A program made the position numbers and the translations under genes. Shown here piece by piece: positions 5,641 to 53,900 of a stretch of 64,000 nucleotides of DNA. The notes under the pieces are model-generated. The model was given only the letters and a program-made list of their open reading frames with translations, was not told the origin of the DNA and did not search any database. Numbering within the stretch: the stretch's first letter is position 1; each line of letters opens with the position of its first letter. The DNA comes from Marsupella aquatica (taxonomy: Eukaryota > Plantae > Marchantiophyta): assembly GCA_973895155.1 (NCBI GenBank), contig OZ316895.1:2467659-2531658 (forward strand). The letters are read 5' to 3'.

Positions 5641-6860
5641 TTCCATTCTACTGCAAATGAGAATTTTGCTTGCAATAACATTACGATCAACAACAATCAT
5701 TTCACATCGCATTCCTTTTGAAGGTTGGTGAGGTGTTTTGGAGGAGTGTGCCAGCTGAGCTTGAAGATCTTCACTAGAGACGTGTTGTCCAGCTTCTATG
5801 TCTAAGTTTTGGTCGTAGGGATTGTTGTTCTCTTACTCTGCCTCCTCTTGTATTCCTCGTTTTCACTATCGCATTGATTGTTTTGCTCTTGATGGTCTTC
5901 TTCATCCCAGGTTCTACTCGTTGCACAAGCAACAGTGGCATAGGAAATATCCCAAGCTACAACTGATTCCCCAATATTTGACTGATTTGCATATCAGATG
6001 TGTGTCAAGACATCCACCAATGTTGTGTGTCCCTTCAATTTCTACTTTGTTGTTCAGGTCACTTCTTGCCTGAAACCCTGATATTGTAATGTCCTGTGTT
6101 TCTATCAAATCCATAGAATACTCAAAAGTAACCTAAGCTATAGCTCCCGAGCGCGATTGACTGATAAAAAATGGTATGTCCCGACATGTACAATTTGGTC
6201 TTGAAAATCTCCAGGCTCTTGTCCATCCTAAGGCATGTCCAGCTGCTTCATCGTTTGGCCCGCGGCCGAGCCCATGAGAGCCATCGCAATTGCCCTAAGG
6301 TTTCTTGGGTCAAGGCTTCAATTCCCAAATGACCAAGCCCTTCAAGATCACTCCATCATTCACTTTCCAGACTTTGCATTTCCAAAACTCAACTAGTAGT
6401 AAGCTAACTTTGACATTTGGTCCCTGTGTATCTAATGGAATTTGATTTTTGTTTGTTTCTTAAAAACTAATTGGGAAGATTGTTGCCACGAGGCTAACAT
6501 CATCAAATTCCATTGAGAATTGAGAGTCTTATGAATTTCCAATGATGACTAATAACCTGATGTAGAGCGCCCTAAGAAGACCTTAATCAAAGAAACCTTG
6601 GAAGATAACCTGAGTTGGGCAGAGAGATCAACTTAAAATCACAAGCACCACGTGCAATCCAAAAGTTGATCTTGGATTGGATTCGTAAGTCACCCTAAAG
6701 CTAAGTCAAATAACTGACAACTCACCCACCTTCTAGTGCTTTAGAGAAAATTCTATCGTTATCAGTGTGATTCCGTCCTGGTTGGGGTAGAATCATAACG
6801 ATACTTTTGAAATCCCTTAATATCAGATGCACGTGTGATTCAATCCATCCTGGTTGTCAA

Positions 6861-7190
6861 TGTCACACCATTCTGAGTAGTGTAGTAGTATATCGTGTTA
6901 TTAGAGTATGTACGTTTGGTATGAGTGCTATTGGAGCCGATAAGGTTCTGTCAGGTTTGTGTGAGAGGGTACTTCTCACTTGTGAGGCATTGAAAGGTCA
7001 TCTTTCAATGTTGAGCCTTGGAGAGAGAGGAGCTTGAGTGTGGCTATGGTGGTTGTGAGCTCCGCTTGTGTAACGTGGATTCCTTGAGTAGTGCAAGGTG
7101 CGTTGGCTTGACATACGTGTGTGATCGGATCGGTGCGGGATCGATGGGGTATTGTTGACCGAGATCGTTGTGCCGATTGTATGGAGATTA
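6861..7190 (+). repeat. Terminal repeat A1 (330 bp)
   Basis: Identical to 15980-16309 except T/C at 6898/16017 and 7053/16172. Confidence 0.95.
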
Positions 7191-7201
7191 CATTGAAAGA
7201 T
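7190..7201 (+). promoter_or_regulatory. Putative self-priming primer-binding site
   Basis: ACATTGAAAGAT at the end of A1 is the exact reverse complement of ATCTTTCAATGT at 7000-7011. No TGG-type tRNA PBS is present. Confidence 0.65.
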
Positions 7202-7460
7202 CACATTCGAAATCTGTTTTACGGACTGTGCGGACAGAAGTTCGATTGATTGAGTTGTCGACGGTTCGTGGTAGCTCGGATTGTGTGTTGTTATCGAACA
7301 GATCGTTGGTATCTTGACCTGTATCGTTGTTGTCCGATCGGCTTGCTTCTCGATCGATGTACAGATCTGTGATTGGTGACAGGTTTTGAGTTGGAGGTCG
7401 ATTGATGATTCGTGGAGGAAAGCGAATGTTGAGTAGATGTTGGACAGTGGAAGTCGATCC

Positions 7461-7550
7461 GTGAGGCTTCAGATCCGATTGCCGGCTACTGTGAGGCTTC
7501 AGATCTGATTGTCGGCTACTGTGGGGCTTCAGATCTGATTGCCGGCTATT
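7461..7550 (+). repeat. 3 x 30-bp tandem repeat in the retroelement 5' leader
   Basis: gtg(a/g)ggcttcagatc(c/t)gattg(c/t)cggcta(c/t)t at 7461, 7491 and 7521. Confidence 0.9.
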
Positions 7551-7788
7551 GTTGGACGATGTTGGCAAGGCGCAGGTGAAGCGACGGCTCTTTTCCTGAA
7601 GGAACGGAGCTGCCAATGCCCCATGCGACGATATCATCGTTTCAGTGAAAGAAACGAGGGTCAAAGGTGTTGAATCAAGCTGCTGCCAGTTCTGTGGAAG
7701 GGCTGTGTTTTTCATGAAGGAAATCGACAGTTTTCGGGAGCTTTTCGTGAAGGAAGTAGTCATTTTTGGGGTCAGGTGTGAGGCGCAC

Positions 7789-8029
7789 GAGGTCACCCAT
7801 CCCGAAAGTGCTCGCGTGAGGCGACGCGTGAGGTCACCCATCCCGAAAGTGCTCCCAACCGTGAGCGCGAAGTCACCCATCGCGAGCGCAGGCAGGCGCA
7901 AGGTTGAGGTCACCCATCCCGGGGCTATTCCGGGCTGTGAGCGCGAGGGGAGGCACAAGGTCGAGCGCGAGGAGGTCACCCATCCCGGGGCTATTCCCAG
8001 CCGCGAGCGCTTAACTGGCAAGTTCTCAT
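7789..8029 (-). promoter_or_regulatory. 5S rRNA-derived internal control region (A box-IE-C box) plus four extra C-box-like copies, antisense
   Basis: Minus strand 8029-7970 reads atgagaacttgccAGTTAAGCGctcgcggctgggaatagccccgGGATGGGTGACCTCCT, colinear without gaps with the plant 5S ICR as I recall it. GTCACCCATC recurs at ~7792, 7833, 7872, 7909 and 7975. Confidence 0.7.
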
Positions 8030-8748
8030 CCCACCTTGTGTACACACAAGCTTTGACAACTTGTTGTTTAGATTCAAGCGCCAGGGGGCTTTATACACTT
8101 CCCGGTTTGTTTAGAGGCCTATTCTAGGCCAAATCAGAGGCTGTTTGAGGGTTTTTGATACTTCTGAGTCCATCTAGACTCACAGATTGAACCAATTTTG
8201 CCTTGGTTCTCATCTACAACATTGGAGTGCCATTGTGAAGCCTATTATGAAGGCTCTTCCTTGAACCTTATGCACATTATCATATTGATTTGCATTTGCT
8301 TTTGTGTGGAGAGTTGAATGGTATCCATTCTTGTTTCTGGATCCTCTTCACACATGTTTCCTGTTTATGCGCCATGTTAGTTTCGTGTGGGCGCTTGATT
8401 CCATAGGAGTGATCCGGGTTTGCAACTGGACATTCTAGTGTGCTGTGTATTTCTCTCTTGGTGATGTTGGAGTGATGCCCAACACACCATGGTGAGTGCT
8501 TGTGGTGCTGACAGGGATAGATTGCCCTTAGGGTTAGCACATAGATTAGGTTAGGGTTGGTCACCACGGATTCTTCTGGTGCTGCTGGATTACCCGATGG
8601 ACGACGGACCGGTTTCACTCGGAGTGGGGCACAGTTTCGGCCAGCGGCATTGGTAGCAGTCAGCAGTGCAGCTTCAGACAGTGATTCTGATGAGGACTCA
8701 GTGACCAGTTCTCCTCATCATCAGGTGGTTGCACCTTTGTTGTGGGAT

Positions 8749-9800
8749 ATGGACGAGATGTACGGGGCTACAAAGGGCCCACGACGATACTCTGGTGCAG
8801 TTGGCACAATTGATGTGGATGACTTCATCCAGGAGTTTGATACGTGGTGCGATATGCAGACATTGCGTAATGTCACGTTGTTTACCCCTTTCATGGCATG
8901 GAAGGGATTATTCCAGCATTTGGAGGGGCCACCAATGGATGACTACCATGAGTTTTGGAAGGCTCATTTGGTTGAGATTGAGGCATGGAGGCAGCATTGG
9001 TCGCCTAATTACGTGTCCATCACCTATGGCACTAGTGCGGCTGCCCAACCAATTGCCACAGCTGCTGCTTCTTCTAGCAGCACTAGCCAGAGTGGCACAC
9101 CATCCACCAGCAGCACTCCAGCAGCATCCACCACTACTCCTGCCGGTGTGATTGTGACAGGAACTGGAGTTGCGCCAGCATTTAATCTTGTGGTGGAATT
9201 CTTTGAGGTACTGAAGCAGAACTATCAGGGTGTGAGAACTGATAAGTTGAAGGGTCTTCAGGAGTTCCAACGCAAGACTGGAGAGAGCCTACGTGAGGCA
9301 TACACATGTATGCGCAGATTGATCACTGTCACCAAGGGAGTGACAGAGGCTCAGGCAGTCCAGTTTTGGTATGCAATTCTGGACAGAGAATTGCGACGCA
9401 GAGTGAGAGATGTCACTCTGCTTAGGGATGCAGATTCCACATTAGCAGTTGTTTTCACCCTTTCTGAGCGCATTGAGCTCAACATGGTGAATGAGAAGGT
9501 GGTGACTTCCGGATTTGCCAAGGAAGCACCAAAGGCTGCATCTACATCCACACCACATCCTACTGCACGAAAGAGCCAGAGGGAGAAGCCTACTGCACGA
9601 GAGTCTACCAGCCAGAGACCTGTGCCCTCTTATGCTGGACAACAGTCAGGATGTTGGACCTGTGGTGGGGATCATGCACAGAGATATTGTCCAGATCATA
9701 GAGGATCAGGGGGAGCATCAGCGCCTGATCAGCGACAGTGTGATCATTGTGGAGCTCCTGGACACACCAAGGATAGGTGTTTCTCACTCCACCCTGAGTT
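8749..9800 (+). other. gag: Gag domain with two zinc knuckles
   Basis: Capsid-like 'FQRKTGESLREAY'; knuckles CWTCGGDHAQRYC and CDHCGAPGHTKDRC; RGG-rich tail follows. Confidence 0.85.
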
Positions 9801-10659
9801 ACGGAGAGGAGGATCCCGTACACATGATCAGGGAAGAGGAGGTAGAGGTGGTGGACGTGGTCGTGGCATGCCACATGCAGGGAGACAGGGAGGTGACGCT
9901 GCCCCTGCTATAACCATAGATCCAAAGGATGCTAAGATTGCTCAATTGGAGCAACAACTAGCTGCCATGGCTAGTTCCCAGGTGAGACCTAATTCTGGTG
10001 ATGGGGCATCTACATCCTATGGACCTTCCACATCCCATGGTCCTTCCACATCTTATGGAGCTGATGGAGACCTTGCCACCATGGGATTCATGTGTGGCAC
10101 TGCACATATTGATGCATCAACAGCTTTGACACGTGGGGCAGCCAAAACTCTTGAGCCCCGAGGAGCAGTAGTGGAGTTAGATCCACAAAGGGGGGATGCA
10201 CGTCGGCAGACAAAGCTTCCTCAGTCTTTTACATTGTCAGAGACAATTCAGACTGCCTCTATGAACCCGGTTCGGACAAACCCTGATGTGGGTAAGTTGG
10301 CAGAATCAGGTAGTGATGCAGCAGGGATGACATGTACCTTGCTGGGGGCGGCTACTGCCATAGTACGCACCCCATTATTTTCAGCGACAGACATGCTGAA
10401 CTTGGGAGTTGGTCCTGTAGAAGTGTTCAGATTGGCAGCTACACTCTGTGAGGACACTCCAGTGGTTGCTTCCCATGCAGAAGCAACTTGTAGTGTTGAT
10501 GCAGTGAAGACCATGCCACCTACTGCTACTAGTGAGACATGGCATGCAGCAGCAGCGAGGTTGGTGGATTTACCAGCACGCCCTGCATTTGAGAGGACTA
10601 GGTTTAAACCTAGTGTTGTGTCATTGGATAATCGGAGTGGTATCTTCCGATTAGTTGGG

Positions 10660-11010
10660 CCTTCTGGAGCAGTATACCAGCCAGAGAGAGTGTTACTGGA
10701 TACTGGTGCTCAGCCCTTGATGTTGGGGAAGTCTGCCATACGTGGATTGGGATTGCGTCCAGAGGATTTGGAGGATTGTCCCTTTCCCATTCAGACTTCA
10801 TTGGGGGGACCTACACCTACACAGCATATCACCAGGAGACCACTTGATTTGAGGATTCAGGAAGGTCATACCACAAATAGCTCACAGATACAGGCGCGAG
10901 CTATTCTGACTAAGGCAGAGTCATATGATGTGTTGGTGGGATGTACAGTGCTCTACCCCATGGGATTTATTCTTGATTTTTGGGAGGAATCAGTGTCATA
11001 TAGACCTGAT
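10660..11010 (+). other. Aspartic protease domain
   Basis: VLLDTGA active site at ~10690 and 'YDVLVG' motif. Confidence 0.8.
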
Positions 11011-11400
11011 TGGCAGTCAGGAGATGCTCGATTGAGCAAATTGCCAGTGAGATTTAGTGGACCTGTGGGAGGCTCTAAATCCACACCATTGTCTTTGGCA
11101 GCATTTAGTGGTGTAATTGCTGGACCTGATGATTTGATTGAGGGTAATGCGCATGCAGCCGATGTTCCACCATTGGAGGAGTCTCATGAGGAGCACATCA
11201 TGCGAGGGTTACCTGTTGGCAGTGTTGTGCCACCAGTGTGGGGCACTGCACAAGCCTTGCCACAGGCAGCAGCACGATTGGTACATGATGCATGGCGTCA
11301 TGCTTTTACACCACAGTCAGGAGTAGAGCAGTCTCTTGCAGATGGACCTGTGATTCTTTCACCATTGGATACCACTCCTATTGCTTGGCAATATCCACCG

Positions 11401-12345
11401 GAGGGTATTTGTTTGTTGGATCTTTTTGGTGGGATTAGCACTGGATTGGCTGTTGTTCTTCAGGCAGGAATTCCTGTGCGTCGTTATTTATATGTGGAGA
11501 CAGATGAGACAGCACGGAGGGTCTCATTGCGACATGTGGCTATGTTGGTGGATAGATATCCATAGTTGCTACCAGTGGATGCTGTTCGTGGTTATCAGCA
11601 TGCACTACCTGCTGATATTTCATTGCTGGGGGCGGATCATCTGCATTGTGTTGGCCCCATTGATTTGGTGATTGCTGGTTGGCCATGTCAGGGCCAATCT
11701 AGAGCTGGCGTTGGGCATGGACTTCATGATCCACGCTCTGCATTGTTTTGGGAGATGTTACGGGTGCTGCGTCACCTCCAGCTACATCAGACACAGTCTC
11801 CTGCATACATTTTGGAGAATGTGCCATTGTTAGGTGATGATCGTAGTCGGATTGTTGCCAGTGTTCACCAGGTGAGGTCTTGGATTGGACCTGCTGTGTT
11901 ATTGGATGCTGCACGTGTGGGTTCTCGTGCACATCGTCCACGCTTATGGTGGACTAATTTGATCCCATATGAGGTGTTGAAGCGCGCATTTGACAGTATT
12001 CCACGCTCACCAGCCTTAGTGGTGGATGATATTTTGGATCCAGGGCGTCGTGCACAGGGTGTGACCCAACCTGATAGACCTCCATTGGCAATGGTCAATG
12101 CAGTTGGGTGCCCACGTTGTGCATTACCCACTCTTGTAAGCCACTCTGCTTCATATGCATTCAGAGCAGGTGGCCCTGGACTTGTATGGCACACAGCTCT
12201 CCAGCAGTTAGTGGAGCCTATTGCTGATGAGAGAGAGCGTGCTATGGGATTTTTGACTGGCACCACTGCAGTTGCCTCTGTGTCAGAGGGTTTGCGGCGC
12301 CAGGTTCTTGGTCAAGCAATGGATTTGAATTGTTTGACTTGGATT
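11401..12345 (+). other. C5 cytosine DNA methyltransferase domain inside Pol
   Basis: Motifs in canonical order: I LLDLFGGISTG, II YLYVE, III ADI, IV IAGWPCQ (Cys codon 11686), V DPRSALF, VI ILENV, VIII HRPRLWW, IX ERERAMGF, X LGQAM. Confidence 0.92.
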
Positions 12346-12699
12346 ATCAGCTTGGGAGTAGCTGAATAGTTGCGGATGCGCTCTGCCGGAATTACTGATT
12401 GTCCCTTGGTGAGCTTGCGGTCCACTGAGACAGTATTGACCACAGCTGGGGGCGAGCAAACAGTCCATGGACCTATGACAGGATTGGCAGCTGGACAGAT
12501 TGTTGAGCAGGAAGAGACTGCTCAATCTACTGCTAAATAGCAATCATCGGCTATCTCTTCTACCCTACAAAGAGATATTAGGGATTTGGTGGAGAGTTGG
12601 GAACCACAGCTTGGCCCTAAGTTAACAGAGGAGGAGAGACGTCGCATGCATCGATTCCTGAAGAGTTATTGGAATTGTTTTGCATTCAGCATGAAGGAT

Positions 12700-13410
12700 T
12701 TGGGGACATTGAAGGGCCCTGGTATTCAGATTGAATTGGCTAGTGATGCGCCAATCTTTCGTAGACCATACCGTTATAGTGACATGGAGAGAGCTCTGAT
12801 TCAAAGCAGAACTCAAGATTTGTTGGAGGCTGGATTAGTGGAGATTTCATATGGGGAGTATGCATCTGCCACAGTGATGCCAGCCAAGAAGGATGTGCAT
12901 GGCAATTACACAGATAGGCGCATGTGTGGTGATTACAGACCTATTAATCGCCAGACAAAATCTGATCGATATGCCATGCCCACACCTGAGGAGATCTTTG
13001 ATGCTGTGGGGCATGCAAAGGTTTTCAGTTCATTGGATCTGAGGGCAGGATACCATCAGCTTCCAATTAGGCATGCTGACAGGTCCAAGACAGCATTCTG
13101 GGGGATTGATTCTTATGGCAAAGATCGTTTGTATCAATGGTTATTCTTACCATTTGGGTTGAAGAATGCACCAGCTGAGTTCCAGAGAGTCATGGATCGA
13201 ATCCTTGCAGGTTTGGATTTTGTCAGATGTTATATTGATGATATTTTGGTCTATTCTTCTACTGTGGAAGAACATCAGCAGCACTTGCAGACTGTGTTGG
13301 AGAGATTGAGAGCACATGGGTTGAAGCTCCATCATAGCAAGTGTAAGTTCTTCCAAGACCAGATTGAGTATTTGGGCCACACCATATACCCAGGGGGATT
13401 GGGTGTACAG
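12700..13410 (+). other. Reverse transcriptase domain (Ty3/gypsy type)
   Basis: RMCGDYRPIN, FSSLDLRAGYHQ, KTAF, LPFGLKNAPAEFQ, YIDD (13231), IEYLGH. Confidence 0.95.
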
Positions 13411-13659
13411 CAGACTAAAGTGGAGGCCATTACACAGATTCCTTGTCCTACTGATGTGAGTAGAGTTCGTGCATTCTTGGGATTGGCGAGCTACTACAGG
13501 AGGTATGTTAAAGGATTTAGCCAGCTTGCTAAACCTTTGACCATACTCACTAAGTTGGATCAGGAATGGATTTGGGGTGATGACCAGGAGCATGCCTTTC
13601 AGGAGTTGAAGCAAAGGTTGGCATCATCCCCTATTTTGAGAAGACCCATTTCAGGCAGA

Positions 13660-14020
13660 CCATTTCAGCTACACACTGATTAGAGTGGAGTAGGACTTGG
13701 AGCAGTGCTGACTCAGAAGGATGATGAGGGGAATGAGTTTGTTGTGGCTTATGCCAGTAGATCAAACAATTCAGCAGAGGCTAAGTATAGCTCTTATGAG
13801 GGAGAGTGTTTGGCAACAGTGTGGGCTGTTGCACACTTTCGTTGCTACTTGTTTGGTAACCCCTTCACCTTGATCACTGATCATCAGCCTCTTAAGTGGT
13901 TAATGGAGTCTGACAAGCTTACAGGGAAGCTTGCACGATGGGCATTGTTGTTACAGGAGTATGATTTCCAGGTGGTGCATAGGCCTGGAAAAGTGAACTT
14001 GGATGCAGATGGATTAAGCC
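13660..14020 (+). other. RNase H domain
   Basis: FQLHTD*S, VAYASR, YEGECLA, TDHQPL, ADGLSR. Confidence 0.9.
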
Positions 14021-14419
14021 GCAATCCATGTACCAGTCAACAGGATGAGACTGGAGCCAGATGGCATGATGAGTCAGATAGGGAGATGGTGCCAGGATGG
14101 CATGCATCTGCCTTTCTTTGTTGGGTGCCAGCATACAGTGGATCTGTGGACTCTACCTCATTGGATGGAGTGGATGATGAGTCTTCAGATGTGGATGTTG
14201 GTGAAGTAACTTCTGGACAGTAAGATATTCACAATGATGTGAGAGTGTTGGAATATCTACGCAATAGTTCTATTGTTGGCAGTGTTGATGCCAAGGAACG
14301 TGACAGGGTTCTACAGAGAGCCAAGAGGTTTCGATGGGAGGGAAACCATCTTTTGAGAGTACTGCATGATGGTAGGATGTTGGTGGTACCAAAACCATCA
14401 CAACGAGTACATTTGGTGC

Positions 14420-15480
14420 GACATGCGCACGAGGAGTTGGGTCACTTTGGTGTGAAGCGCACTTACAGCTTGCTGCAGACGCAGTATTGGTGGCGTGGTA
14501 TGCACACTCATGTCCAGCAGTTGATAGCTAAGTGTGTGGTATGTGACAGAGTGAGAGCATCATTTAATGCTCCCACTCCCTAGTTGCACCCATTACCGAT
14601 CATGGGTTTGGGATATCGTTGGAGTTTGGATTTTGCTGGTCCATTACCTCTTACCCAACGTCATAATCGGTATGTTTTGGTCATGGTGGAGCACTTCTCC
14701 AAGTGGATTGAGCTAGTGGCGTTGCCAGATAAAGCCAGTGGAGGAGTTGCTGCTACATTTTTGGATCGTGTACTCAGTCATTTTGGAGCACCAGCTGAGG
14801 TGTTGACTGATCAGGGAACTGAGTTCCGTGGAGAGTTTGAGAGTTTGTGTGAACAAGCTCTGATTGATCATCGCACTACCTCTCGTGATCATCCTAAGGC
14901 AGATGGATTAGCTGAGAGAGTTGTGCAAACTGTGAAGAGAGGATTGCGTAAGTATGGCTTGCAGGTTGGTCATCTGGGAGATTGGGATCTCCAGCTACCT
15001 TGGTTAGCTATGGGCTACCGTTTCAGTTGGCAAGCATCACTTGCATCCTTCTCACCCTACTTTTTGCTCTATGGTAGAGAGCCAGATTTGCCAGCAGCTA
15101 TTCGTCGTCATGCTGCACCAGTTGTGAACTTGGATGATCCTGATGTTTGGGTCAAGGTGTGTTCAGAGAGAGCACGGGTATTTCAGAGAGTGATGCCCAT
15201 GGCTTTTGACAACCTTGCCATTGCCCAACATCGTGATACTTTGAGGTATGTCACTATTCGTGGAGGAGGTTACCGTGCAAGCATTCGACGATTTCATCCT
15301 GGTGATTATGTTTATTTGCAGCAGACAACACCCACGACACTTGATGTGACCGCAGGCCGGACAATCTTACGTGTGCGTGAAGTGTTGCCTTCTGGTGTCC
15401 TGATGTTGGAGGGACGCGATGGTATGGTTTGGAAGGATCATGTGCGCAACTGTGCACCATGTCACCTTCCCAACATTGAT
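14420..15480 (+). other. DDE integrase
   Basis: HHCC zinc finger (HEELGH...CVVC); catalytic triad in WSLDF / TDQG / AERVV; 'SPYFLLYGR'. Confidence 0.92.
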
Positions 15481-15525
15481 GGTACAGTAGATCCAAGCTT
15501 GGCACATGTTCGTGCTGGCTTGAAA

Positions 15526-15660
15526 TGTATGTTGTGTGGATCTGCTCAGGGAGCAGCTACTATGTTGATTTGTGATAAGTGTTCTAGAGGATGGCACATG
15601 TCATGTTTGACACCACCATTGCAGGTGATTCCTAGTGGATCATGGTTGTGTCCTCAGTGT
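15526..15660 (+). other. C-terminal PHD finger (C4HC3) on the integrase
   Basis: CMLC...MLICDKCSRGWHMSCLTPPLQVIPSGSWLCPQC. Confidence 0.92.
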
Positions 15661-15830
15661 CGGTGAAGCCGACTAGTTATCATTTGTGTTCTCTTGGCAG
15701 ATATGGATTGCAGGTAGGTGATCGATGGGGCTCACTTGCACCCGGCCTCCTGATCTTCACACCTAAAAAGGTGTATATCAACCTTGTAGAACTCATGGCT
15801 AGCTAGAGTTAGGGGACCTTACTCCCAGCT

Positions 15831-15840
15831 AGGGGGGCGA
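15831..15840 (+). promoter_or_regulatory. Polypurine tract
   Basis: AGGGGGGCGA directly upstream of repeat B1. Confidence 0.75.
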
Positions 15841-15841
15841 T

Positions 15842-15977
15842 TGTGGGTTTTGGACATGTGTGGACATGAGTTCCACTTGTATTCCATTCTCTTGTATTTG
15901 TGATGTGGTAGTGTGACTATGTCTGGATGTATGTGACAAGCGATGTATGTTGTGTAGCGATATGTATGCGCACGACA
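15842..15977 (+). repeat. Repeat B1 (136 bp)
   Basis: Identical to 16311-16446 except C/T at 15891/16360 and T/C at 15909/16378. Confidence 0.95.
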
Positions 15978-15979
15978 GC

Positions 15980-16309
15980 TGTCACACCATTCTGAGTAGT
16001 GTAGTAGTATATCGTGCTATTAGAGTATGTACGTTTGGTATGAGTGCTATTGGAGCCGATAAGGTTCTGTCAGGTTTGTGTGAGAGGGTACTTCTCACTT
16101 GTGAGGCATTGAAAGGTCATCTTTCAATGTTGAGCCTTGGAGAGAGAGGAGCTTGAGTGTGGCTATGGTGGCTGTGAGCTCCGCTTGTGTAACGTGGATT
16201 CCTTGAGTAGTGCAAGGTGCGTTGGCTTGACATACGTGTGTGATCGGATCGGTGCGGGATCGATGGGGTATTGTTGACCGAGATCGTTGTGCCGATTGTA
16301 TGGAGATTA
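15980..16309 (+). repeat. Repeat A2 (330 bp)
   Basis: Copy of 6861-7190, separated from B1 by the dinucleotide GC. Confidence 0.95.
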
Positions 16310-16310
16310 T

Positions 16311-16446
16311 TGTGGGTTTTGGACATGTGTGGACATGAGTTCCACTTGTATTCCATTCTTTTGTATTTGTGATGTGGCAGTGTGACTATGTCTGGATGTA
16401 TGTGACAAGCGATGTATGTTGTGTAGCGATATGTATGCGCACGACA
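16311..16446 (+). repeat. Terminal repeat B2 (136 bp)
   Basis: Copy of B1, ends in GACA followed by TSD TCAA. Confidence 0.95.
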
Positions 16447-17159
16447 TCAAGCCATATATGAGAACAATATCTTGCAAATCCCTTCCTTTCCTTTTTCTTT
16501 GATTTTAATGGTTTTTAAACATAGTAACTTAAAATATATAATGAGTATTCCACTTTATTAATCTGGCTTGTCTTTGCAAATTTTCTTTCTTTCTACTATG
16601 GAAAATATTAATCTTTCAATTTTCTAAATTCTTGGGAAACTCTCTTGGTTCCTTCACCTCCCCACCTGGCCAAGATTTAAAGCCTTGTTGTCATCTTCTA
16701 GTTACAGTGGTCCATGGCCACACTCTCTGCCATCCATGCAACCTCCTCCTTACAGTTCCCTTCCATGTGACCTCCCTCATCTATCTTGTCTATTTTGCAT
16801 AGCTATTATACAATTGAATTGCAAACTGAACTACTTAAAACTCAATCCAAAACTAGTGATACCCTCAACACTAAATGTCTGTCATTGCAAAATTCATAAA
16901 ATCTACTCTTTCAAAGGCAAATCAGGAATAATGCATGAACAAATCCAAAATAGTACTATCTTCCTCCGAACACAACGCCTGGGCATTGTGTTCAAAAATG
17001 ACATTTTGGGGTCCTAAAAGCAAAAAGTGGTTTTTCTTCAAACACATCAACATTAAAAGTAACCATATTCTTGTAACTGCCCAAACAAAATTTCCAGAAC
17101 AAAAGAAGCTAAGGACCCTCCTCTCTCCTCCCTTAGCATCACGTGGTTTGATAATGGCC

Positions 17160-21000: not shown

Positions 21001-22020
21001 TTGAGTCATCTTCTGTCTGTCGTTGGCGTTGGCGTTGGCTTTTGACCTCGGCGAGGAGGAAGAAATCCAGCGCTATAATATTACGATAATATTACGAGTA
21101 GCTCGTAAGAACGTTTTTGGTTTTGGTCACGAGGTTTTGTTCCCTTCTTCGTTAAAATCTTTATCATGAACTCAATTTGCCACATCAGCTGAACCTCGGA
21201 ATCAATGTCTAATCAGCTGTCAGATATTCTTGTTGAACTGTGAGCAGGTGCTGCAGAGGACGTCGGTGACTTCGGTGGGCCTTTGTGGTGGAGGAGAAGA
21301 AACTGGCTATTAGGAAGTCTCCGTGGGGGCTTTGTAGACAAGGGCACGGAACCTGAGAGTCATCTCGGCACCAGTGTTTTAAGGGGGTAAAGGCACTCTG
21401 CTAGGGAATGCTGGTAAAGAAATGCCGTGGCGAAATCCCTCAACCGAGTACGCATGTAGTAGGTGGATGTCACGGGCCAGTTCACGCACGAGGTAGGGAA
21501 ACTCGGCGTCGATTCACCCTGTACCGTTGCTGTGTTTGGACTCGTTTGAGTCGACTATAATCGAAGTTGGTTTACGAGTTCGAAGCTGACGGTCAGCTTG
21601 TTCCGCTGGGAAGCACATTCATAAAAATACTTAGCATCTGTTTGTGACTCCAACCCTCTCGGATTGCCCACGGAAGCTGTGAGCAGGGACGAGTCGTTTC
21701 ATCATGACCAGGTGCTTCGTCCGGGGGAGTGAGCACGATTGACAGGAATGAGTGCTCAGCAGGATGCCAACCCTCAGTTAGCTTGCTGGTGGAGTTTATT
21801 CAGCTCGCCTTAGCTCATGGTCGATCAGAGGGTTTATGCGTATCCAGGTTACATAACCCGTCTTAGGAGCGAAAGCGAAGTACTGTGTTGGATCCGTGGG
21901 TTTAAGACTTGGTGGGGGAGGATTATTGTTTTGGGAATCTTCGTTCAGCGTGACGTGTGGTCTTCGCAAAGGAGAAACTCATGCTGGAGAAGAGCATGCG
22001 TGACAATTTAAGTTCGGGTA

Positions 22021-23280
22021 ATGCCCCTAACCAGCTCTGCCGTGGATGCTTTTGGAGTCACGACCCTGGTGCTCGTCATTTTGTTGTGCTTCGTGGGAGT
22101 ATTCTGTGTGGCCTACGTCCTCCACTTTCGATCAAAGATACATAAAGAGCAACTCCTTGCGTTGCGTGATTTCAATTCGCTATGGGTGGTACGGATTATT
22201 ATGATAATTTTTGCGACGCTATGGGGACTCGTGGAGCTTCTTCGACTTCCTTTGATGAGGAGACATGGATGGGTGCTGCACGACATGAGTTTCCAGTGGC
22301 AGGCAAATATGTGCAGGACGTACATTCTTTTGTCGATGGGTCTCCTGGAGCCCTGCTATTTTCTCTCAGCTCTCTTTTTGGTGCAGGGCTCGCTTCGAAA
22401 TGCTCCATTCACTCCGAGAGGACGTTGGAATGGGAGGGTGATCGGTTTGATATTGCTCTGCTGCTTGCCTGTGTTTCTTGCTCAGCTCTTTTTTGTAGTC
22501 ATCACTCCCAGTTTCGAATTTCGACAAGGGTATAAAGTGGACAACGAAGGTTACGATGGAACTCTGCCGTATTATTTTACTAGAGCATTCGAGGAATTGG
22601 AAGAGCCCAAGGACCGCGTAGCAGTTTGCACATACCCCCTCTTCAGCACCCTGTCCCTGGGCCTTTTTGGTTTCTTTTATAATATTTATTTCCTGTATTT
22701 GGGTTGGAGGCTTTTCTCCATGGTCATCAACAGAAGACTGCAACTGAGGGTTTATGGCCTTGTTATGGCGGTGGTATTACTTCTGCCTGTACATGTCATG
22801 TTTCTCGGACTGTCGGTCTTGTCCAACCCTAGTGAGCCCGTTTTTGAGGCTATGGGATTCCTGGGATTCCTTACTGTGCTCGTCTGCACCACTGTAGGAG
22901 AGGGTATTTTGGTTGTAAGACCCATCGCTGATGCATTAGCAGTGCGGTGGGTTTTTGAAAGCGACGAGCGGAAGAAGAGGGGCACGCAAGGTGAGATACC
23001 GATAGAGCCGATTCTAGTCTCACTATCCTCTCTATCAGTTTTTGGAACGGAGATGGATGAAGCAGCTATAGGTGCTAGGCAGAGTCTCCTGGGAAAGATT
23101 ACTGTTACATCTAATGATCACCGTTCAGATGCCGACTTGATGGAGGTTGCCCTCATGCCAGTGGGAAATTCGAGGATCTCTTCAGCAGATACAAATGGCA
23201 TACTTAACTCTCCTCCTGATTCGCCTGCATTACCCGGAAAGCCCTTTACCTTTCAACACAACCTTCATGCTCTAGTGTAG
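22021..23280 (+). CDS. Conserved plant multi-pass (about 7 TM) membrane protein of unknown function, 419 aa, intronless CDS
   Basis: Long ATG ORF with about 7 hydrophobic segments. N-terminus 'MPLT...DAFGV' resembles an uncharacterised land-plant family. Probable 5' UTR intron 20719(GT)-21247(AG). Confidence 0.85.
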   Translation: MPLTSSAVDAFGVTTLVLVILLCFVGVFCVAYVLHFRSKIHKEQLLALRDFNSLWVVRIIMIIFATLWGLVELLRLPLMRRHGWVLHDMSFQWQANMCRTYILLSMGLLEPCYFLSALFLVQGSLRNAPFTPRGRWNGRVIGLILLCCLPVFLAQLFFVVITPSFEFRQGYKVDNEGYDGTLPYYFTRAFEELEEPKDRVAVCTYPLFSTLSLGLFGFFYNIYFLYLGWRLFSMVINRRLQLRVYGLVMAVVLLLPVHVMFLGLSVLSNPSEPVFEAMGFLGFLTVLVCTTVGEGILVVRPIADALAVRWVFESDERKKRGTQGEIPIEPILVSLSSLSVFGTEMDEAAIGARQSLLGKITVTSNDHRSDADLMEVALMPVGNSRISSADTNGILNSPPDSPALPGKPFTFQHNLHALV

Positions 23281-24280: not shown

Positions 24281-25395
24281 CTCTTAACACCTAGCCAGTT
24301 TCTGGACATTTGTTTAGTGTAAAGGCTCAATTGGCGCAGTCCATTGTGGAGCACGAAATTGTCAAAGAGGGTGGAGAGGCAACTTTAATGCACCAGACTC
24401 CTCCTAAGCACCAAATGTACAGCCCTCTACTCCAAAAGTTGGAGACCCAAGTAAGCGTCTTATCCGTACTAGATGATCTGTGGTACTTGAGTCGCAAAGC
24501 TACTAAAGTGTAATGTCCATCTAAACAACAAGGCCTACACCATTGATCCAGTAATATGATAACCCTTTAAATTTTGACGCATATTCAAAATGGGGGTGAT
24601 TTGAGTGATTTCAGATGAATAGAGTAAAACCTCCGGGTGGATCTTACTAATAAAGCTTAATGCAAAGCTAACTTCAAGGACTATTATTTAGAATGAAGCT
24701 CTCGTCCATAACTCTCAATAGGACAAAACTGAGGACAAAACTGAAAATGGAAGATGTACCAAAAAAAAAGGGATGGGAGCAAAGATTAATAAAACTTACA
24801 TTGACTATAAATAAGGACAAAACCAATAGTGACTTTCAATAAGACAAAATAGAAGTGAGGGTGAATAACAAAGGGATGGAGGCAAACATGAACAACAGTA
24901 TCTTTGTTTTATAAGATTTTTTTTGTTTTCATCTCTATTTAAGTTCACAGAACGGGGTGTAATCAGGCTAGTTCTCCTAAATCTAAATGGGACAACAGTT
25001 AGTACGATGCATGTACAATCCACGCAGATCACACTATATCATAGAGACTATCACAAGTAAAGACAAATGTAACAAACAACATTATTGGCTAGAAACTTAT
25101 GCTGGAAATGCAATGGGTTTCAGAACCATGAAGGGTTTTCTTGTTTAGGTCTCAAATTGAATGCCACTCCTCTTTGGATGTTAGAGTCTTTACCTCAGGT
25201 CCAACTATTGTGATATTTGATGCATGGGAAAGCAGTATCCTGCATGATGCAATGAGACCAACTTTGGAAAGTTGGGTGAAGAAGTGAGGGATCAATATGG
25301 CCATTCAGTGAAACACACTTCAAAATTTGGCCACAACTTTAGCATTTGCAACGAGATTGGCAGACTGTTTAGTGTGTTTGAATTTTTTTTGAGGC

Positions 25396-25810
25396 TGCTA
25401 TATGGTGGAATACCTTTTGGTTGTTCTTGTCTTATTCATGTTTCTTGTCATGTATTTTTATATGCATTTGACCTAGTGTAGGCTTTTGTTTTGTATCATT
25501 TCAAATTTAGTAATTTCTTCTAACCCCCTTAATTTTTTAAATGCCTTAGTTCCAATCAGGTAATTTAGAGTAAATGTTGATCTTTTTATGACTCTACTTT
25601 GCTCTGCTCAATTCGTCCTTATTTCTGAGAAGGAGAGACTCTCCACCAGGCTCAACGGAGCAACTAGAACTCAACAGTTTTATGTACTGTAGCTTATATC
25701 CCCATTGGGTTGATAACTTTACAATACTTATGGTTTATACATCAATAAGTGTCACCTACAAATACAACTCAAAATTAAAGGTTAAAAAGTTCAAGTATTT
25801 CTCTTTCAAC
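25396..25810 (+). repeat. Dispersed repeat copy 1 (probable transposon remnant)
   Basis: Reverse complement of ~50485-50908, e.g. ttatttctgagaaggagagactctccaccaggctcaac versus gttgagcctggtggagagtctctccttctcagaaataa. Confidence 0.8.
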
Positions 25811-28800
25811 TAATATTGTACCCACAGTACAATAGTTAAAACACAGTGTACAATAGTTAATGTAATTGTCTTTTTCAAAGTGAGAAAGTATTCTACCTCT
25901 CATTGAAAGAGAATCACTACAAGACAAATAAGCAAGCATGTTCCAGGATGAGCATGCTATATTTGAATTGTGGTAAGGTGGCACACCAATGAGTTGTTGA
26001 AGAATATAGCAAAATTGAGGGATATTGATTAGGATTTCTAACAGGGTGTAAGTAGCAATTGTGCCTTTTGTAACCAACACACACATGAGTAGCGACCCTT
26101 GTTCCTTGGAATGGGAACACTATAAATTTTAATACAGTAACTCCACAGATAGGGGGGAACAAGCAGCCCCAAAGGGAAGAGCACCAACAAACGCAACACC
26201 AGCAAGGTGGCCAGTCATCACAAAACCCAGAAAACACCCACGGCAAGAACCAGCGCTCAGGATCAACCGAGTAGACATGCAGACCCAGGAAACACAACAG
26301 GCCCAAGAAGCACAACTAACCCAAAATAGGAGGGCCATCATCTGAGACATCTAACCTACACCTAAGGGTGGCTTTACAAGAACTTGGGGGCAGCAGTTTT
26401 TTTTTCTAGGTGTACCCATTCATATGTGGCAACAGGCAAGGCCACTCTTCACTTTACATGAACTTGGGGGCACATTCAAGTACAACCATTACCAAACTTA
26501 GTGATCTGTCTCTTCTGGGTCCCTTTTTTTGCTGACGCGCACGTGATTTTGGTCAAAACTTGGACCTCCTCTTGAGGTACAACTTCCACCCAAATTTACA
26601 ATCAAAGAAAAAACAAAGTACAACAAATTTAAGGAAAGAAAAAGAGGTCTAAAGAGGACAAAAACCAACAAGGAAATTGAAAAGCAAGGGTAACCCTAAA
26701 AAAAGAGAAGAAGAGAAAGGAAAACTATCTAACACTTCACCAGTGGTAAAATCTAGTGTCCACATAGGAAAATGTGGCAAGAGCTAATGGTCCCATCCAG
26801 TGTCCTAAGTATATCAGCAAGTGGGACAGGAATGTATTCTAGGGGCGCAAGCGTCTGAGGAGGCACAGTAGCCAACCGCGAGGGATCGACAACAAATTTC
26901 TGAACCTTGAGCACGCTTAAAGGCCACTGAAATCATAAACTTATCAGCAATGATAAACGAATAAAGTGACAAAGAAATGCAAACCATGATCCACCTACTT
27001 CCCGGAAAACAAGAAAAGGGACAAAGCAGTCAATATACAAAAACCATCCCTAAACCCTGAACCTTATGTCCCAAAGAACACAAAACTGACATGACAATAC
27101 AAGAAACTATGTATGTATCGGCCATGTCCAATCAGACACAAAATTGACATGACAGTGCAATAAACAATACTGTATCACTATGTCCTTGGCTACTAACCAT
27201 AAAACGCTGGTACTACAATGCAAGAGCTGATAGGATTATTGGCTCAGACTTGGGTATTACCTTGTCAATTTCATGAAGAATTGAAGAGAGTTTTGAGTTC
27301 CTAAAGATTACTCCAATCACTCAGGGTCCACACATTGGGCTTCCAAAAGTTTTTGAGCACCTAACCTTGACATTCAGTGTCTCCCTCAACATCCAATCTA
27401 TTGTTTTTGGGCTGGATAGAAATGCATGGGAAAGATCTTTTCAATGAGCCTAATATAGAGATTTTAGAGACCATTTTCTTGCCTCATTTCATTCACCCAT
27501 GTAGTAAGTATTATATGAGCATAAAAGTGAAATTTGTTGCAATTTATCCAGGTTGCAAAAGTAAATATATCCAAGCATTTTGGCAAACATAGAAGCCCAT
27601 CCTAGCTTCAAATTTGGATGAAATTTGAGTTTGTCTTCAAGTATCAAGAAAGGAGAAAAACAGTAAAGATGGTAACAATGTAGTTTGTATTTGGTGTAAA
27701 ACTTGCATCATACTGCCATTACATAATTGCAAGACTGTTGCATATGGTCAAACCTCGAGGCACACCAGGTTAAGTTTTTGGTTTGGGTTTGGTTTCTACT
27801 CAAATCAAAATTTTAATGTTCTTTTAAAGCAATTGATTCCCCTAAAAAAATAGCCTTATGATTATTTCCATACCCATTTAGTTCAAAAACTAAACATTCA
27901 TTTCTTTTATTACTTTACCCGCTTACAAAACAATTCCATATATGCCAAAAGCCAAGCAATGGCGGGATGTTTATGTACAATCATTAGAAGCAAAAAAATA
28001 CTTCTTAAAGTTGCTAGGTGAGATATAGTTTATACACATTTGCTAGTTAACTCTTCACAACAGTACTTCAAATGCTCCAATTTCCCTTGGTGTCTTAACA
28101 GAGTCCTCTGATAAATCTCTGATGGGGAATTGAACCCCAAACTGCAAGTTGCAGCCTTCCAAGCAGAGAACCCCCCCACTAACCCTGCCCACCATCCCAG
28201 CACCCGAGCCATTTCAAAGACACAAACAAAAAATTTGGAAGAAGGTAAATATCTTCCGGATTCCTGTGCAATGGTTTACTTGTCACCTTGCAAAGAGATT
28301 TTCTTAACAAATATATCCTCTCCTTCCTCCTTGCACTGGTTTGGCCTCTGTCCACACATACAGCAGCAAACACCATGCAAGAGAATTGAAAGTAGGCCAA
28401 AACTGCCACCAGAGCACGCAACCTATACAGCTGAGGCCAAAAGAGCCAAAAGAGCCAAAAACCATCTTGAAGACAAGCCGAAACGAGAGCACACAGGAAA
28501 ACTCAGGCGAGAGGACAACAATAGCACAACGTCCGTGCGCAGGAAAGCTGAGGCGAGAGCAGAATTCAGCGTGAACCAAGAATAAGATTAGTAAGAACCA
28601 AGTATGAGATTACCAAATTACCCACTTCCAATGCCTTATTAGCTGGTTGTTTGTGGTTTCAGCCAGGACTTGTCCTAAACTTGCTGCCTCAAACTTGCAA
28701 AGTAACCTCCCTAAATTCATAATTATATGGGTGTAAAATCTTAGAAGTCCACTAAAGAGTGTTTCCGCTAGAAGACAAGAAAAAAACGAGTTCTAGGATG

Positions 28801-50200: not shown

Positions 50201-50484
50201 ACCTATCCGTAAACTATGGGTTAATACTGGTTTTGATTATCAAATATTTTCCTATGCTTAACTTTCATTTTGTGTTGCTCTTGTCATGTTACAGTGTTAC
50301 TTTTTGTCGAGAAAGAGTTACCAGTCATGCATGCCTGTTTGAGAAAGTTTGCGGATAGATTCAATTGTTGTCTAAAGGTGCACAAAAGAGGCACCAAATG
50401 AAATACAAGTATACCGACAGGATTGATTTGTCACCAACCCTATGTCTGTAGAATTTCAGGATTTTTGTATGGTACAATTGTGTT

Positions 50485-50908
50485 GAAAGACAAATACCTG
50501 AACCTTTTAACCTTTAATTTTGAGCTGTATTTTTAGGGGCTCTTTATTCAGGTGACACTTATTGATGTATAAACCCATAAGTGTTGTAAAGTTATCAACT
50601 AACAGGGATATAATCTACAGTACATCCAACTGTTGAGTTCTAGCTGCCCGGTTGAGCCTGGTGGAGAGTCTCTCCTTCTCAGAAATAAGGACAAATTGAG
50701 CAGAGCAAACTGGAGTCTTAAAAAGATCAACATTTACCCCAAAGTACCTGAATGGAACTAAGGCATTTAAAAATTAAGGGGGGTTACAAGAAATTACTAA
50801 ACTTGGAATAATACAAAAAAAAGCCTAGACTAGGTCAAATGCATATAAAATACATGACAAGCAACATGAATAAGACAAGACAACCAAAAGGTATTCCGCC
50901 ATATAGCA
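50485..50908 (-). repeat. Dispersed repeat copy 2 (inverted relative to 25396-25810)
   Basis: Long stretches of reverse-complement identity with copy 1. Confidence 0.8.
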
Positions 50909-53900
50909 GATCACTTGGCAATACTTCACACAAATCTGGGAGTAAGTTAACTTGATCATATGTCTAGCTTGAATCTACTACATCAGTGTTTTTTATTAGA
51001 AATATTCAAAAATGCTATTTATCCTATTGAATTGGAGGATATTAAACGTCATAACTGATAAAGTAAGAAAAAGGGGGAAAAGAACTGGACATGAACAGTG
51101 AAATATTGAACATGCTTTTACTATCATGACAAATAGAGTTGAAAAATAAGGAAGAAGACGGAGGGTGTATGGTAATGCAGCAAATTGTACTATCAGGTGG
51201 ATTGTACTATATTGCATTTAGAAAGCAGGCTCCCAGAAATCTAGAGTTAAAGACTCAACTGTCAGCTTTAGTGCTTAGCATAGTCATTGAATGACTTGAT
51301 TGGGGGTGGAACGCACTAAAGAACAATTTCAAACAAAAACAATTAATTTAAGGGGTTCTTTCATCTTAAAAGTAGAGAATAGACTCCCCCAAAGCAAATC
51401 AAAAATTAAATACTTACTCTGGCAATCCACCAAGATGCACTTGTGACTGCCCATCTCTTTTATTCTGCAGGATCCTTGTCAGAGCATGGGTGATTGACAT
51501 ACAAGAACACCACCTGACCACATTGTAAAGCTCAATTGTGACCAAATTAGTGGCAATTTAGCAAATGCCCTTGAAATTAACAACAGTAACCCAGGCTCTC
51601 TAGCAGCAACAAGGCAGGGGTTTGAATTCAAAGACTGAGTAGCATGCATGAACAGCAAATGTAGGGGAGGGAGCAAGGACAGGGAGCTTCTACATCAGAC
51701 ACAGGAACTGTCCAAGCTGGGAGATGAAACATTGCGCAAGGAATTCACATGATTGCAGGGCAAGGAAGAAAGTTCACATGCTATTAAGAGTGACAGAGTA
51801 GTTGAACCTGCCCATCTGAGAGAGAATGGGGGAGTGTTGTCGAGTACCAATTGTCCTGTTGGCAAGTTTGGCAGCAAATGCAAAGGTAATGAGAACTTTC
51901 GAGAAGGTTATTTAGTCGTGTACGACTCAAAGTCTCTCTCGCTGTGAAAAGGTCGCTGTGAAAAGGAAACCCAAACTTTTGTACTTGCCCAGCCCAAGCA
52001 GAATGGGCAGTTACATACGAATCAGAATCTATTGTCTGGATTGAGAGTTTTGGCCGCACCTCCTCTTCACAGAAAGAGTAATGCGGAACATTGGCTTGCT
52101 CGGTAGATTCTCTTAATGGGGGGATTGAAAACTTGGGCAAGTATCAATTAATCTCTGGTACCTGTTTGGCCTGAACTGTCTGGATTTGTTGTGTGAGGTC
52201 TCATCTGAGTAAATTATGTTAGTCATTGGCTATTGCAGAGCAGTGGAGGGAAAGTTGATTCGAGCTGATTTGATTTGCCTCTATTTCTCTCAATTCTGAC
52301 CAATTACTCAAGGTTCCATATGAATGCAAAGGGCACTTTTCTAACCTGTTTTATTTTTCTCTGAATTACGACAATTCCCTCTTGCGTTCACGTAGACCTC
52401 TTTTCACGGTGCACATTCCTCCCTGATGACCCCTTCCACTATGTTCCCCTTCCACTGAGTTCCCTGCACCTCCTCTAAATTTTTAGTTAAAGTCCTATTG
52501 CAAGAGTGCCACTGTGAAACACTACAGACTGCACATCATGCTACATACTGTGTCGGAAATCCCCCCCCAGGTGTAGTGGGCCATCACAGGGCCGATTGAG
52601 TCCCAAATGCATCTTGGCAGACTGTTAAGTCCACAAGATGCCATAGGGGCCTGTTAAGTCCAAACTTGTGAAATTTCTAAGATTGCTTGTGTGAACTGAC
52701 AATACTTGTACATCTGGTTAGGACATGATTAAATATGGACTTGAATTTATGTCAACCTAATTACTTGAAAAATTCGTCACCAGCACCTAAGATTAGAAAA
52801 TTGTCAAACAATAAGAGTATTCATTGACCTTCATTAACTCGTTTGTCTCGGCTGCAAAGTATGATTAAAGTATGGCTCTTGTTCTTCACATTCATATAAG
52901 AAGGGATGACCGTTTAAGGGCCCCTTTCCTATTGGAGAATGACTCTGAGGGGATTCTAAATGCCAGTTTGTTTTCTATTTTGTAGAGACATTTCTACACA
53001 AGCATGCTCCATGCTGTGTACGTTGTTTCTTTGTCACCTGAGCTTTCACTTCGAATTAATGCCATCGGAATCAGATCTGTTCAATTAATGATGACTGAGG
53101 GACTGTTATTGATCTGCCTCTTTCAGATTTTCAGAACGACCTCACTGACTCACTTGAATGGGATCTATGTAATGATGAGCCAGTAAACAACCCTTTCAGC
53201 CTTATATGACATGCGGCACATCCTCTCGCAGCCCGCAGAGTCGCAGCTGTTTAAAATGCCGTCCCACCATGTTCCATCGGCGGCGAGGTAGTTGTTAATT
53301 AATCAATTCCCATCAATGGGATACGAAGGAGCTTTCATGGCAAGAGCTAGGTCCGGCAACAATAATAGTGGGCCGACAACATTGGTTCTCCTTGGGACCT
53401 TTCGGAGTTCGCCAGTTCGGACCATACTTGTGAAGTATAACAATAATTAATCGGTACATCCTCGTTACTAACTTGTCGTATCAAGCGAAGAAATCATCAT
53501 TTCTTTCCCAGGACTTCTTTCGTGAGGAATGAACGTTTAAACGGTCAAAATCAGTTCGTGTACTCAGTGATACAACACAGCTTCCGCCAATCAAGCTCCA
53601 TGACGAGACAGAGTACTTCAGAAGAGCTCATGCACGAGACAGTATACTTCAGAAAAGCTCATGCAGTTTTCGAACAATTATCGACGTACGGGAGTCAAAA
53701 GATTACTTTTCAATCAAATGATGGATTGGATCTTGATGACTTGGGATACTATATTGTACAGTCGTTTGGCGATTGAAATTCACAGGGCAGTCTGCCATTG
53801 TCCGCTTACATCGAGATCCCCACTCAGGCAAGACCGGTGCAATTAGACAGATTTTTTGCTGTGGTAGTTTCTAAGAAACTAAGTCTAGCTTAGTTTTGTA

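Follow-up and report, generated by a model that had tools for sequence, protein, structure and literature searches.

What brings the repeats of a retrotransposon with Ty3/gypsy enzymes into a split order, and which ends does its integrase use? In the standard picture, long terminal repeat (LTR) retroelements integrate through the ends of a linear complementary DNA (cDNA), and LTR circles do not lead to insertion. An element at positions 6857-16450 of a 64,000-nt stretch of Marsupella aquatica DNA (contig OZ316895.1; the whole stretch is called the window hereafter) does not have the two colinear LTRs of canonical Ty3/gypsy elements. Two repeats, named A and B here, lie in the order A1-pol-B1-GC-A2-B2 and thus form an A...B-A-B pattern. 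Here, we describe this locus together with related loci. We consider it likely that the inserted ends are set by the integrase, cutting a palindrome inside the LTR, and not by processing of the cDNA ends.

Layout of the locus

The A...B-A-B arrangement, with TGTC and GACA at its outer ends and a perfect target-site duplication (TSD) of TCAA on both sides, was confirmed as the integrated unit that the initial annotation had recognised (Table 1). A1 and A2 show 2 differences over 330 nt, B1 and B2 show 2 differences over 138 nt, and the GC spacer between B1 and A2 occupies positions 15978-15979. The adenine at 15840 and 16309 is common to the end of A2 and the start of B. The boundaries originally given for A were correct, whereas B had been started 2 nt too late. 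No further copies of A or B were found within the window. Only 4 of 468 bases differ between the paired repeats, although the reading frame has six internal stops, which suggests that this copy may derive from an already broken template.

The junctions were compared with contigs from four runs (X1-X4), which may include the source of the window. In all four runs, unique host DNA leads 27 nt into A1, and in three of them unique host DNA is joined to B2, reaching 27-29 nt into the repeat; with these lengths, the host-junction contigs fall below the bridging rule of 31 nt. The A2/B2 junction is bridged by at least 31 nt on each side in runs X2 and X3. No record covering the entire element was found among the contigs of the four runs. 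Within the stretch 15920-16380, 39, 22, 40 and 41 contigs of the window's own family (X1 to X4, respectively) exit B exactly at GACA and continue into unrelated flanks (agreement 0.36-0.39). Another set of loose ends is located before 16304 (17, 9 and 6 contigs in X1, X2 and X4, agreement ~0.55). These contigs join B and the last bases of A to other, partly related upstream sequence and perhaps represent diverged A copies that keep the A/B join, diverged subfamilies, short derivatives, or something else.

Survey of related loci

To place the locus in a wider context, the best 80 of 519 confirmed metagenome loci, retrieved with an alignment of 34 integrases, were surveyed. They belong mainly to two families, with integrases ~75% and ~52% identical to that of the window. 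A scan of viral contigs yielded no loci, and named integrase relatives come from Calypogeia, Marchantia, Sphagnum and Klebsormidium. In 27 of the 80 loci (20 distinct flanks) the integrase is followed by B-NN-A-B, while 21 loci have a single B and then host DNA. Among the 20 flanks, L034/L035 is a weak case (72% similarity between the B copies and an uncertain end), and L033 is truncated where its contig stops. The remaining 32 loci are outside this layout count: the contig ends at or soon after the integrase, the ends are truncated or deleted (L026, L037, L042, L052, L059, L066, L075), there is no repeat match, or B-NN-A is followed by the primer-binding site (PBS) without a host junction (L012, L038, L048). 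In these last three loci, a whole B-NN-A LTR lies downstream of the integrase and is followed by the self-priming site described below. They run into the element's own leader and are therefore tandem, circular (1-LTR circles) or collapsed.

B was found before A1 at none of 15 distinct visible 5' ends, a count that omits L075, L054 and L055 with their degenerate or truncated A1. Neither a left end of the type host-B-GC-A nor a complete B-GC-A followed by host DNA occurs among the surveyed loci. With 20 distinct B-A-B flanks, and conventional BA...BA copies not among the informative loci, the split repeats are a trait of the family, as had been suspected from the single locus.

Both ends are visible in ten loci, four of them A...BAB and six A...B. 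A perfect 4-bp TSD flanks six of the ten (L017, L045, L004, L019, L069, L074); the chance of a 4-bp match between random flank positions is 0.006. The A...B form (L003, L004, L019, L046, L069, L074 and 15 others), in which A and B each occur only once, has about the same frequency as A...BAB, and four of its six copies with both ends visible have a perfect 4-bp TSD. In appearance, the A...B copies resemble DNA transposons with short TGTC/GACA ends. L046 interrupts a repeat of which L017, L057 and L060 have an intact version, and its duplication is ~7 bp and not 4.

Predicted priming sites and LTR

A polypurine tract (PPT) lies directly before B1, and a PBS of the self-priming type directly after A1. 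The PPT precedes B1 in every family inspected, and related families have a G-run at its position. The PBS is complementary over its full 12 nt to a site inside A1 at which the transcript is predicted to start, and none of 2000 control 36-mers matched as well. In 13 of 15 A1 copies the best 12-nt complement is found at the corresponding place, with 12/12 pairing in six of those. The letters of this complement differ among families and the pairing is kept, with lengths of 12 nt in the window and in the L003 family, 14 nt in each of L012, L038 and L048, and 15 nt in L039/L073. A TATA box precedes the predicted start by ~30 nt in L012 and in two families; the window copy has no clear one there. 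These features are consistent with a predicted self-priming PBS of the Tf1 type. A 9-10-mer copy of the PBS is also present just upstream of the predicted start and makes a hairpin with it (CATTGAAAG-GTCAT-CTTTCAATG, window 6988-7010). The hairpin arrangement recurs inside A in L003 and L017, with other letters in the L017 family, and is not present in the L062 family.

Given a PPT before B1 and a self-priming site after A1, the cDNA should carry an ordinary LTR of the order B-GC-A. These positions of the PPT and the PBS are also the reason for rejecting A+B as the LTR. The earlier proposal that the element converged on split repeats misses this anatomy, which predicts an ordinary LTR opened at an internal site. 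In three families, the predicted cDNA ends are ATTG...GATT, AGTT...TTTC and ATAC...CAAT, and none of them has the TG and CA pair.

The internal palindrome and the A2/B2 junction

Each inserted end is formed by one half of GACA-GC-TGTC, a palindrome that in the window is situated ~140 nt inside the LTR. Six sequence families with otherwise different repeats share the core GACA-NN-TGTC, and the palindrome is longer (14-16 bp) in L038 and L048. A second purine tract or primer site was not seen at the palindrome.

With a 12-nt primer, A2/B2 is the exact join of the predicted cDNA ends in all three families examined. The L062 family showed how variable this position is: 7 of 15 distinct copies have the exact join and 8 depart from it, through losses of 1, 2, ~7 and ~210 nt, a gain of 2 nt that correspond to the start of the PBS, and a single G that agrees with the PPT. 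The large loss sits at a 3-nt microhomology. Control positions in the same family were unaltered (0/9 at A1/PBS, Fisher p 0.009; 0/15 at B1/A2, p 0.002), and the 2-nt length of the palindrome spacer was kept in 15/15 copies. Furthermore, one of five copies of the L017 family carries a 19-nt filler at A2/B2. These alterations look like end-joining scars.

Coding region

The window element is a broken copy of a Ty3/gypsy family with a DNMT3-like domain, a DD34E integrase and a PHD finger; its single gag-pol frame is interrupted by six internal stops (11563, 12367, 12538, 13681, 14221, 14581), which render it broken. Zinc knuckles of gag are visible in the translation. The order protease, reverse transcriptase, RNase H, integrase corresponds to the Gypsy set, with a weak protease match (E 0.008, below the Pfam cut-off). 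The best Protein Data Bank (PDB) matches of the methylase are to DNMT3A (E 2.3e-08), and a Dnmt3-type methyltransferase is also located inside the Pol frame of all four related A...BAB loci with both ends. The integrase core is matched by rve, and its best non-PHD PDB match is Ty3 Gag-Pol.

A DDE integrase without a tyrosine recombinase had been noted at the outset, and this was borne out, as none of the 20 open reading frames of at least 100 aa in the element has a Pfam match to a tyrosine recombinase. The other 14 stop-to-stop frames of this size have no Pfam match at its cut-off. No chromodomain match was found in the element, which has the C-terminal PHD finger in its place. Thus, the integrated unit, its status as a family trait and the combination of DDE integrase and TSD stand from the initial annotation, in which neither the DNMT3-like domain nor the PHD finger nor the common A...B form appears.

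The DD34E spacing was present in 32/32 polyproteins of the PHD/DNMT group, and DD35E in 45/47 other matches. In a reverse transcriptase tree of 129 sequences, the window and nine loci fall into a 59-member group with PHD/DNMT proteins (support 0.86), separate from four chromodomain carriers; the tree included no named Tcn1, Chlamyvir or Phygy reference. On the minus strand, a 300-codon antisense open frame without Pfam match is found in the leader (7188-8090). It overlaps short tandem repeats at 7461-7552 and 7785-8010 (3 x 30 nt; 4-5 copies, 21-39 nt unit).

Table 1 Features of the split-repeat element, with positions in the window
Feature	Position	Strand	Basis or remark
Left TSD, TCAA	6857..6860
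A1, right part of LTR (predicted distal U3, R, U5)	6861..7190	+	TGTC at host junction
Predicted transcript start and self-primer, ATCTTTCAATGT	7000..7011	+	12/12 complement of 7190-7201
Self-priming-type PBS, ACATTGAAAGAT	7190..7201	+	Directly after A1
gag-pol single frame: gag, protease, DNMT3-like, reverse transcriptase, RNase H, integrase, PHD	8545..15666	+
DNMT3-like C5 cytosine methyltransferase, stop-interrupted	11400..12366	+	Pfam PF00145 E 5.5e-11; start approximate
Reverse transcriptase and RNase H	12910..13962	+	PF00078, PF17919, PF17917
Integrase, H2C2 finger and DD34E core	14392..14916	+	D 14629, D 14809, E 14914
C-terminal PHD finger	15526..15660	+	PF00628 E 3.8e-11
PPT, AGGGGGGCG	15831..15839	+	Directly before B1
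B1, left part of 3' LTR (predicted proximal U3)	15840..15977	+
Internal palindrome GACA-GC-TGTC, proposed integrase attachment site	15974..15983		Uncut in 3' LTR
A2, right part of 3' LTR	15980..16309	+
A2/B2 junction, putative join of predicted cDNA ends (GGAGATT + ATTGTGG)	16309..16310		PBS and PPT positions
B2, putative left part of 5' LTR moved to right end	16309..16446	+	GACA at host junction
Right TSD, TCAA	16447..16450

Proposed route of insertion

The following sequence of events would produce this arrangement. The RNA would start at ~7000 inside A1 and prime itself at 7190-7201 in a Tf1-like manner. Minus-strand transfer to A2 and plus-strand priming at the PPT would then give a linear cDNA of the form (B-GC-A)-pol-(B-GC-A). 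In its 5' LTR, the integrase would nick both strands of GACA^GC^TGTC after CA and insert both CA-3' ends with a spacing of 4 bp. Host end-joining would link the original ends of the cDNA, resulting in A...B-GC-A/B. This linkage could take place either before cutting, as a 2-LTR circle, or after insertion, as repair of a chromosomal break. A 2-LTR circle cut in its 5' LTR would yield A...BAB, and linear cDNA that is cut there and inserted, with its free ends joined, would do likewise. The A...B copies may come from 1-LTR circles, from cutting of both sites, or from B1-B2 recombination or homology repair, and only A...BAB copies would retain the terminal redundancy that is required for a further round.

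Across an entire plant clade, the ends that reverse transcription produces appear to be distinct from those that the integrase uses. If true, this would provide a naturally occurring integrase able to open a 10-bp internal site, with insertion generating a 4-bp TSD, and the question of circles as integration precursors would become directly testable. It would also explain the DIRS-like repeats of KnitGypsy-Dnmt3, an element of the alga Klebsormidium nitens. It may further be speculated, more tentatively than for internal cleavage itself, that this clade, from green algae to bryophytes, has abandoned end-directed integration altogether. Its cDNA ends would then not serve the integrase as substrates, the DD34E-PHD integrase would act as a site-specific endonuclease on an internal GACA-GC-TGTC site of the covalently closed 2-LTR circle, and this circle would be the obligatory precursor. 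In annotation practice, finders that expect two colinear LTRs would lose B2 of A...BAB copies and miss A...B copies entirely.

Alternative explanations

Several points weigh against internal cleavage by the integrase. A free 2-LTR circle contains two identical sites and predicts the mirror form A-B-A...B in ~7 of the 15 visible 5' ends, and none was seen. This absence is the main unexplained result; it might arise if the 5' LTR were completed earlier in reverse transcription. The surveyed loci are metagenome contigs, in which repeats may be collapsed, and among the loose-end rows listed (24 of 330) there is none for the left end. TSDs are not uniform: those of L003 and L073 match at 3/4 positions, L046 shows an imperfect duplication of 7 bp, and no TSD is present in L039. 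The best complement of the PBS is elsewhere in A in 2 of 15 A1 copies. Pairing between the 5' end and the PBS is missing from the minimum-energy fold of the window (single-sequence fold of 7000-7215), and its probability varies with the folded length, from 0.02 to 0.61 in the window and from 0.83 to 0.98 in L039 and L073. The A/B junction lies in AT-rich sequence, where indels are as numerous in 4% of the regional 12-nt windows and more numerous in one stretch of A than at the junction. Moreover, the cDNA, the circle, the transcript start and the internal cleavage are predicted from sequence.

The missing mirror form would be accounted for by a templated route similar to that of DIRS/PAT elements. 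Here, RNA would extend through B2 and template switches would copy A...BAB, or a circle closed at B/A, so that the A2/B2 junction would be inherited and not newly made and the integrase would supply the final step only. The layout equals that of split-repeat tyrosine-recombinase elements (PMC5890265), and an exact junction kept in 7/15 copies also fits. However, a standard LTR scheme follows from the positions of the PPT (before B1) and the self-priming site (after A1). In three families, the two ends set by the primers fall on the junction, which also carries end-joining-like scars. By the standard retroviral mechanism of reverse transcription, RNA beyond A2 would not be copied. We therefore regard the templated route as unlikely. 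Somewhat less probable still is that a host nuclease, or the reverse transcriptase/RNase H, makes the TGTC/GACA ends, such as by means of an additional site for priming or stopping within the palindrome, and that the integrase then acts conventionally. TG...CA ends and a 4-bp TSD are an ordinary integrase outcome, and the GC spacer has the length of the usual 2-nt overhang. Such pre-formed ends are difficult to reconcile with a palindrome that lacks a second purine tract or primer site, and with the DD34E spacing that the clade has as its own. The position of the halves of one site at opposite ends of the element is also explained most simply if one complex holds both. A one-off aberrant insertion or mis-assembly of a conventional two-LTR element is largely refuted and highly improbable. 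It would agree with the lack of a whole-element record, with junction contigs that reach only 27-29 nt into the repeats, and with the whole B-NN-A LTR followed by the PBS, not B, in L012, L038 and L048. These three loci are without a host junction, however, and the layout recurs with TSDs in families of ~75% and ~52% integrase identity. Neither form of conventional end was present among the surveyed loci, and the layout is already in print for Klebsormidium.

Other features of the window

Outside the element, two 440-bp repeat copies that are 87% alike form an inverted pair at 25395-25822 and 50471-50909. An open frame of 422 codons at 22012-23280 contains several hydrophobic stretches and has no Pfam match; its product is probably a host membrane protein.

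Comparison with known systems

The element had initially been thought to represent an undescribed family. A single sentence in the Fig. 4c legend of de Mendoza et al. 2018 (PMC5890265) shows otherwise, as it gives KnitGypsy-Dnmt3 of Klebsormidium nitens the same layout, with DIRS-type repeats, Gypsy domains and Dnmt3; family and layout were thus already known. By that paper, KnitGypsy-Dnmt3 shares with the window element the Gypsy domains, a Dnmt3-type DNMT in the Pol frame and A-coding-B-A-B repeats. In the text considered here, the paper concerns one alga and contains no TSD, termini, PBS/PPT, PHD finger or mechanism, whereas relatives of the window element are named also from liverworts and Sphagnum. 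Two K. nitens integrase-PHD proteins (P0007, P0053) show a 53-55% match and DD34E spacing, and they may or may not share descent with the KnitGypsy-Dnmt3 elements of that paper. A preprint from 2026 (10.64898/2026.05.21.726589) mentions streptophyte Gypsy-DNMT3 in one sentence, and the passages considered likewise contain no termini, TSD or mechanism. No published account of the mechanism was found in the literature searched, which left out most subscription journals and did not cover Repbase, REXdb or GyDB. The architecture hence appears to be real, family-wide and in print once, while the mechanism appears to be undescribed and to depart from the standard LTR cycle.

The A...B-A-B layout is shared with PAT, Ngaro, TOC1 and SymbioDIRS-Dnmt3, and in each case the internal B/A junction mirrors the site opened on insertion. 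Unlike these split-direct-repeat tyrosine-recombinase retroelements, the window element has no tyrosine recombinase and instead possesses a DDE integrase, a protease, a PPT, a self-priming site and a 4-bp TSD. Split-repeat tyrosine-recombinase retroelements are not known to have a TSD; a 4-bp TSD flanks the window element and 6/10 loci. In common with canonical Ty3/gypsy elements, a PBS follows the 5' repeat and a PPT precedes the 3' repeat, as judged by sequence. The differences from these elements are the lack of two colinear LTRs at the ends, primer-defined cDNA ends that are not TG...CA, and an integrase spacing of DD34E instead of DD35E.

Self-priming is described for Tf1 (PMC7175516) and predicted for plant Tcn1 (PMC6317226). 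The window element resembles Tf1, sushi and Tcn1 in its putative self-priming PBS, which is suggested by complementarity with mixed support from folding. In the parts of these sources considered here, Tf1, sushi and Tcn1 are chromodomain carriers with two flanking LTRs, in contrast to the PHD finger, the lack of a chromodomain match, the DD34E spacing and the split LTRs of the window element. Ginger transposases indicate that gypsy-like integrases can be cut-and-paste transposases (PMC2836005, PMC6839031, each in part). As described in PMC2836005, they are similar to the proposed route in that a gypsy-like integrase cuts ends from continuous DNA, with TGT termini, a 4-bp TSD and, in one family, a PHD finger; Ginger elements are DNA transposons with inverted repeats of 40-270 bp, unlike the window element. 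The closest parallel for the cleavage step itself may be foamy virus integrase, which, according to the section of PMC1180852 used here, cleaves a palindromic LTR-LTR junction. Both would be DDE enzymes that cut a palindrome within double-stranded DNA and free CA-3' ends. The foamy virus palindrome is the join of two cDNA ends, as stated there, and cutting restores the normal order. In the window element, the palindrome lies ~140 nt inside the LTR, the inserted copy retains the putative cDNA join, and its order is permuted.

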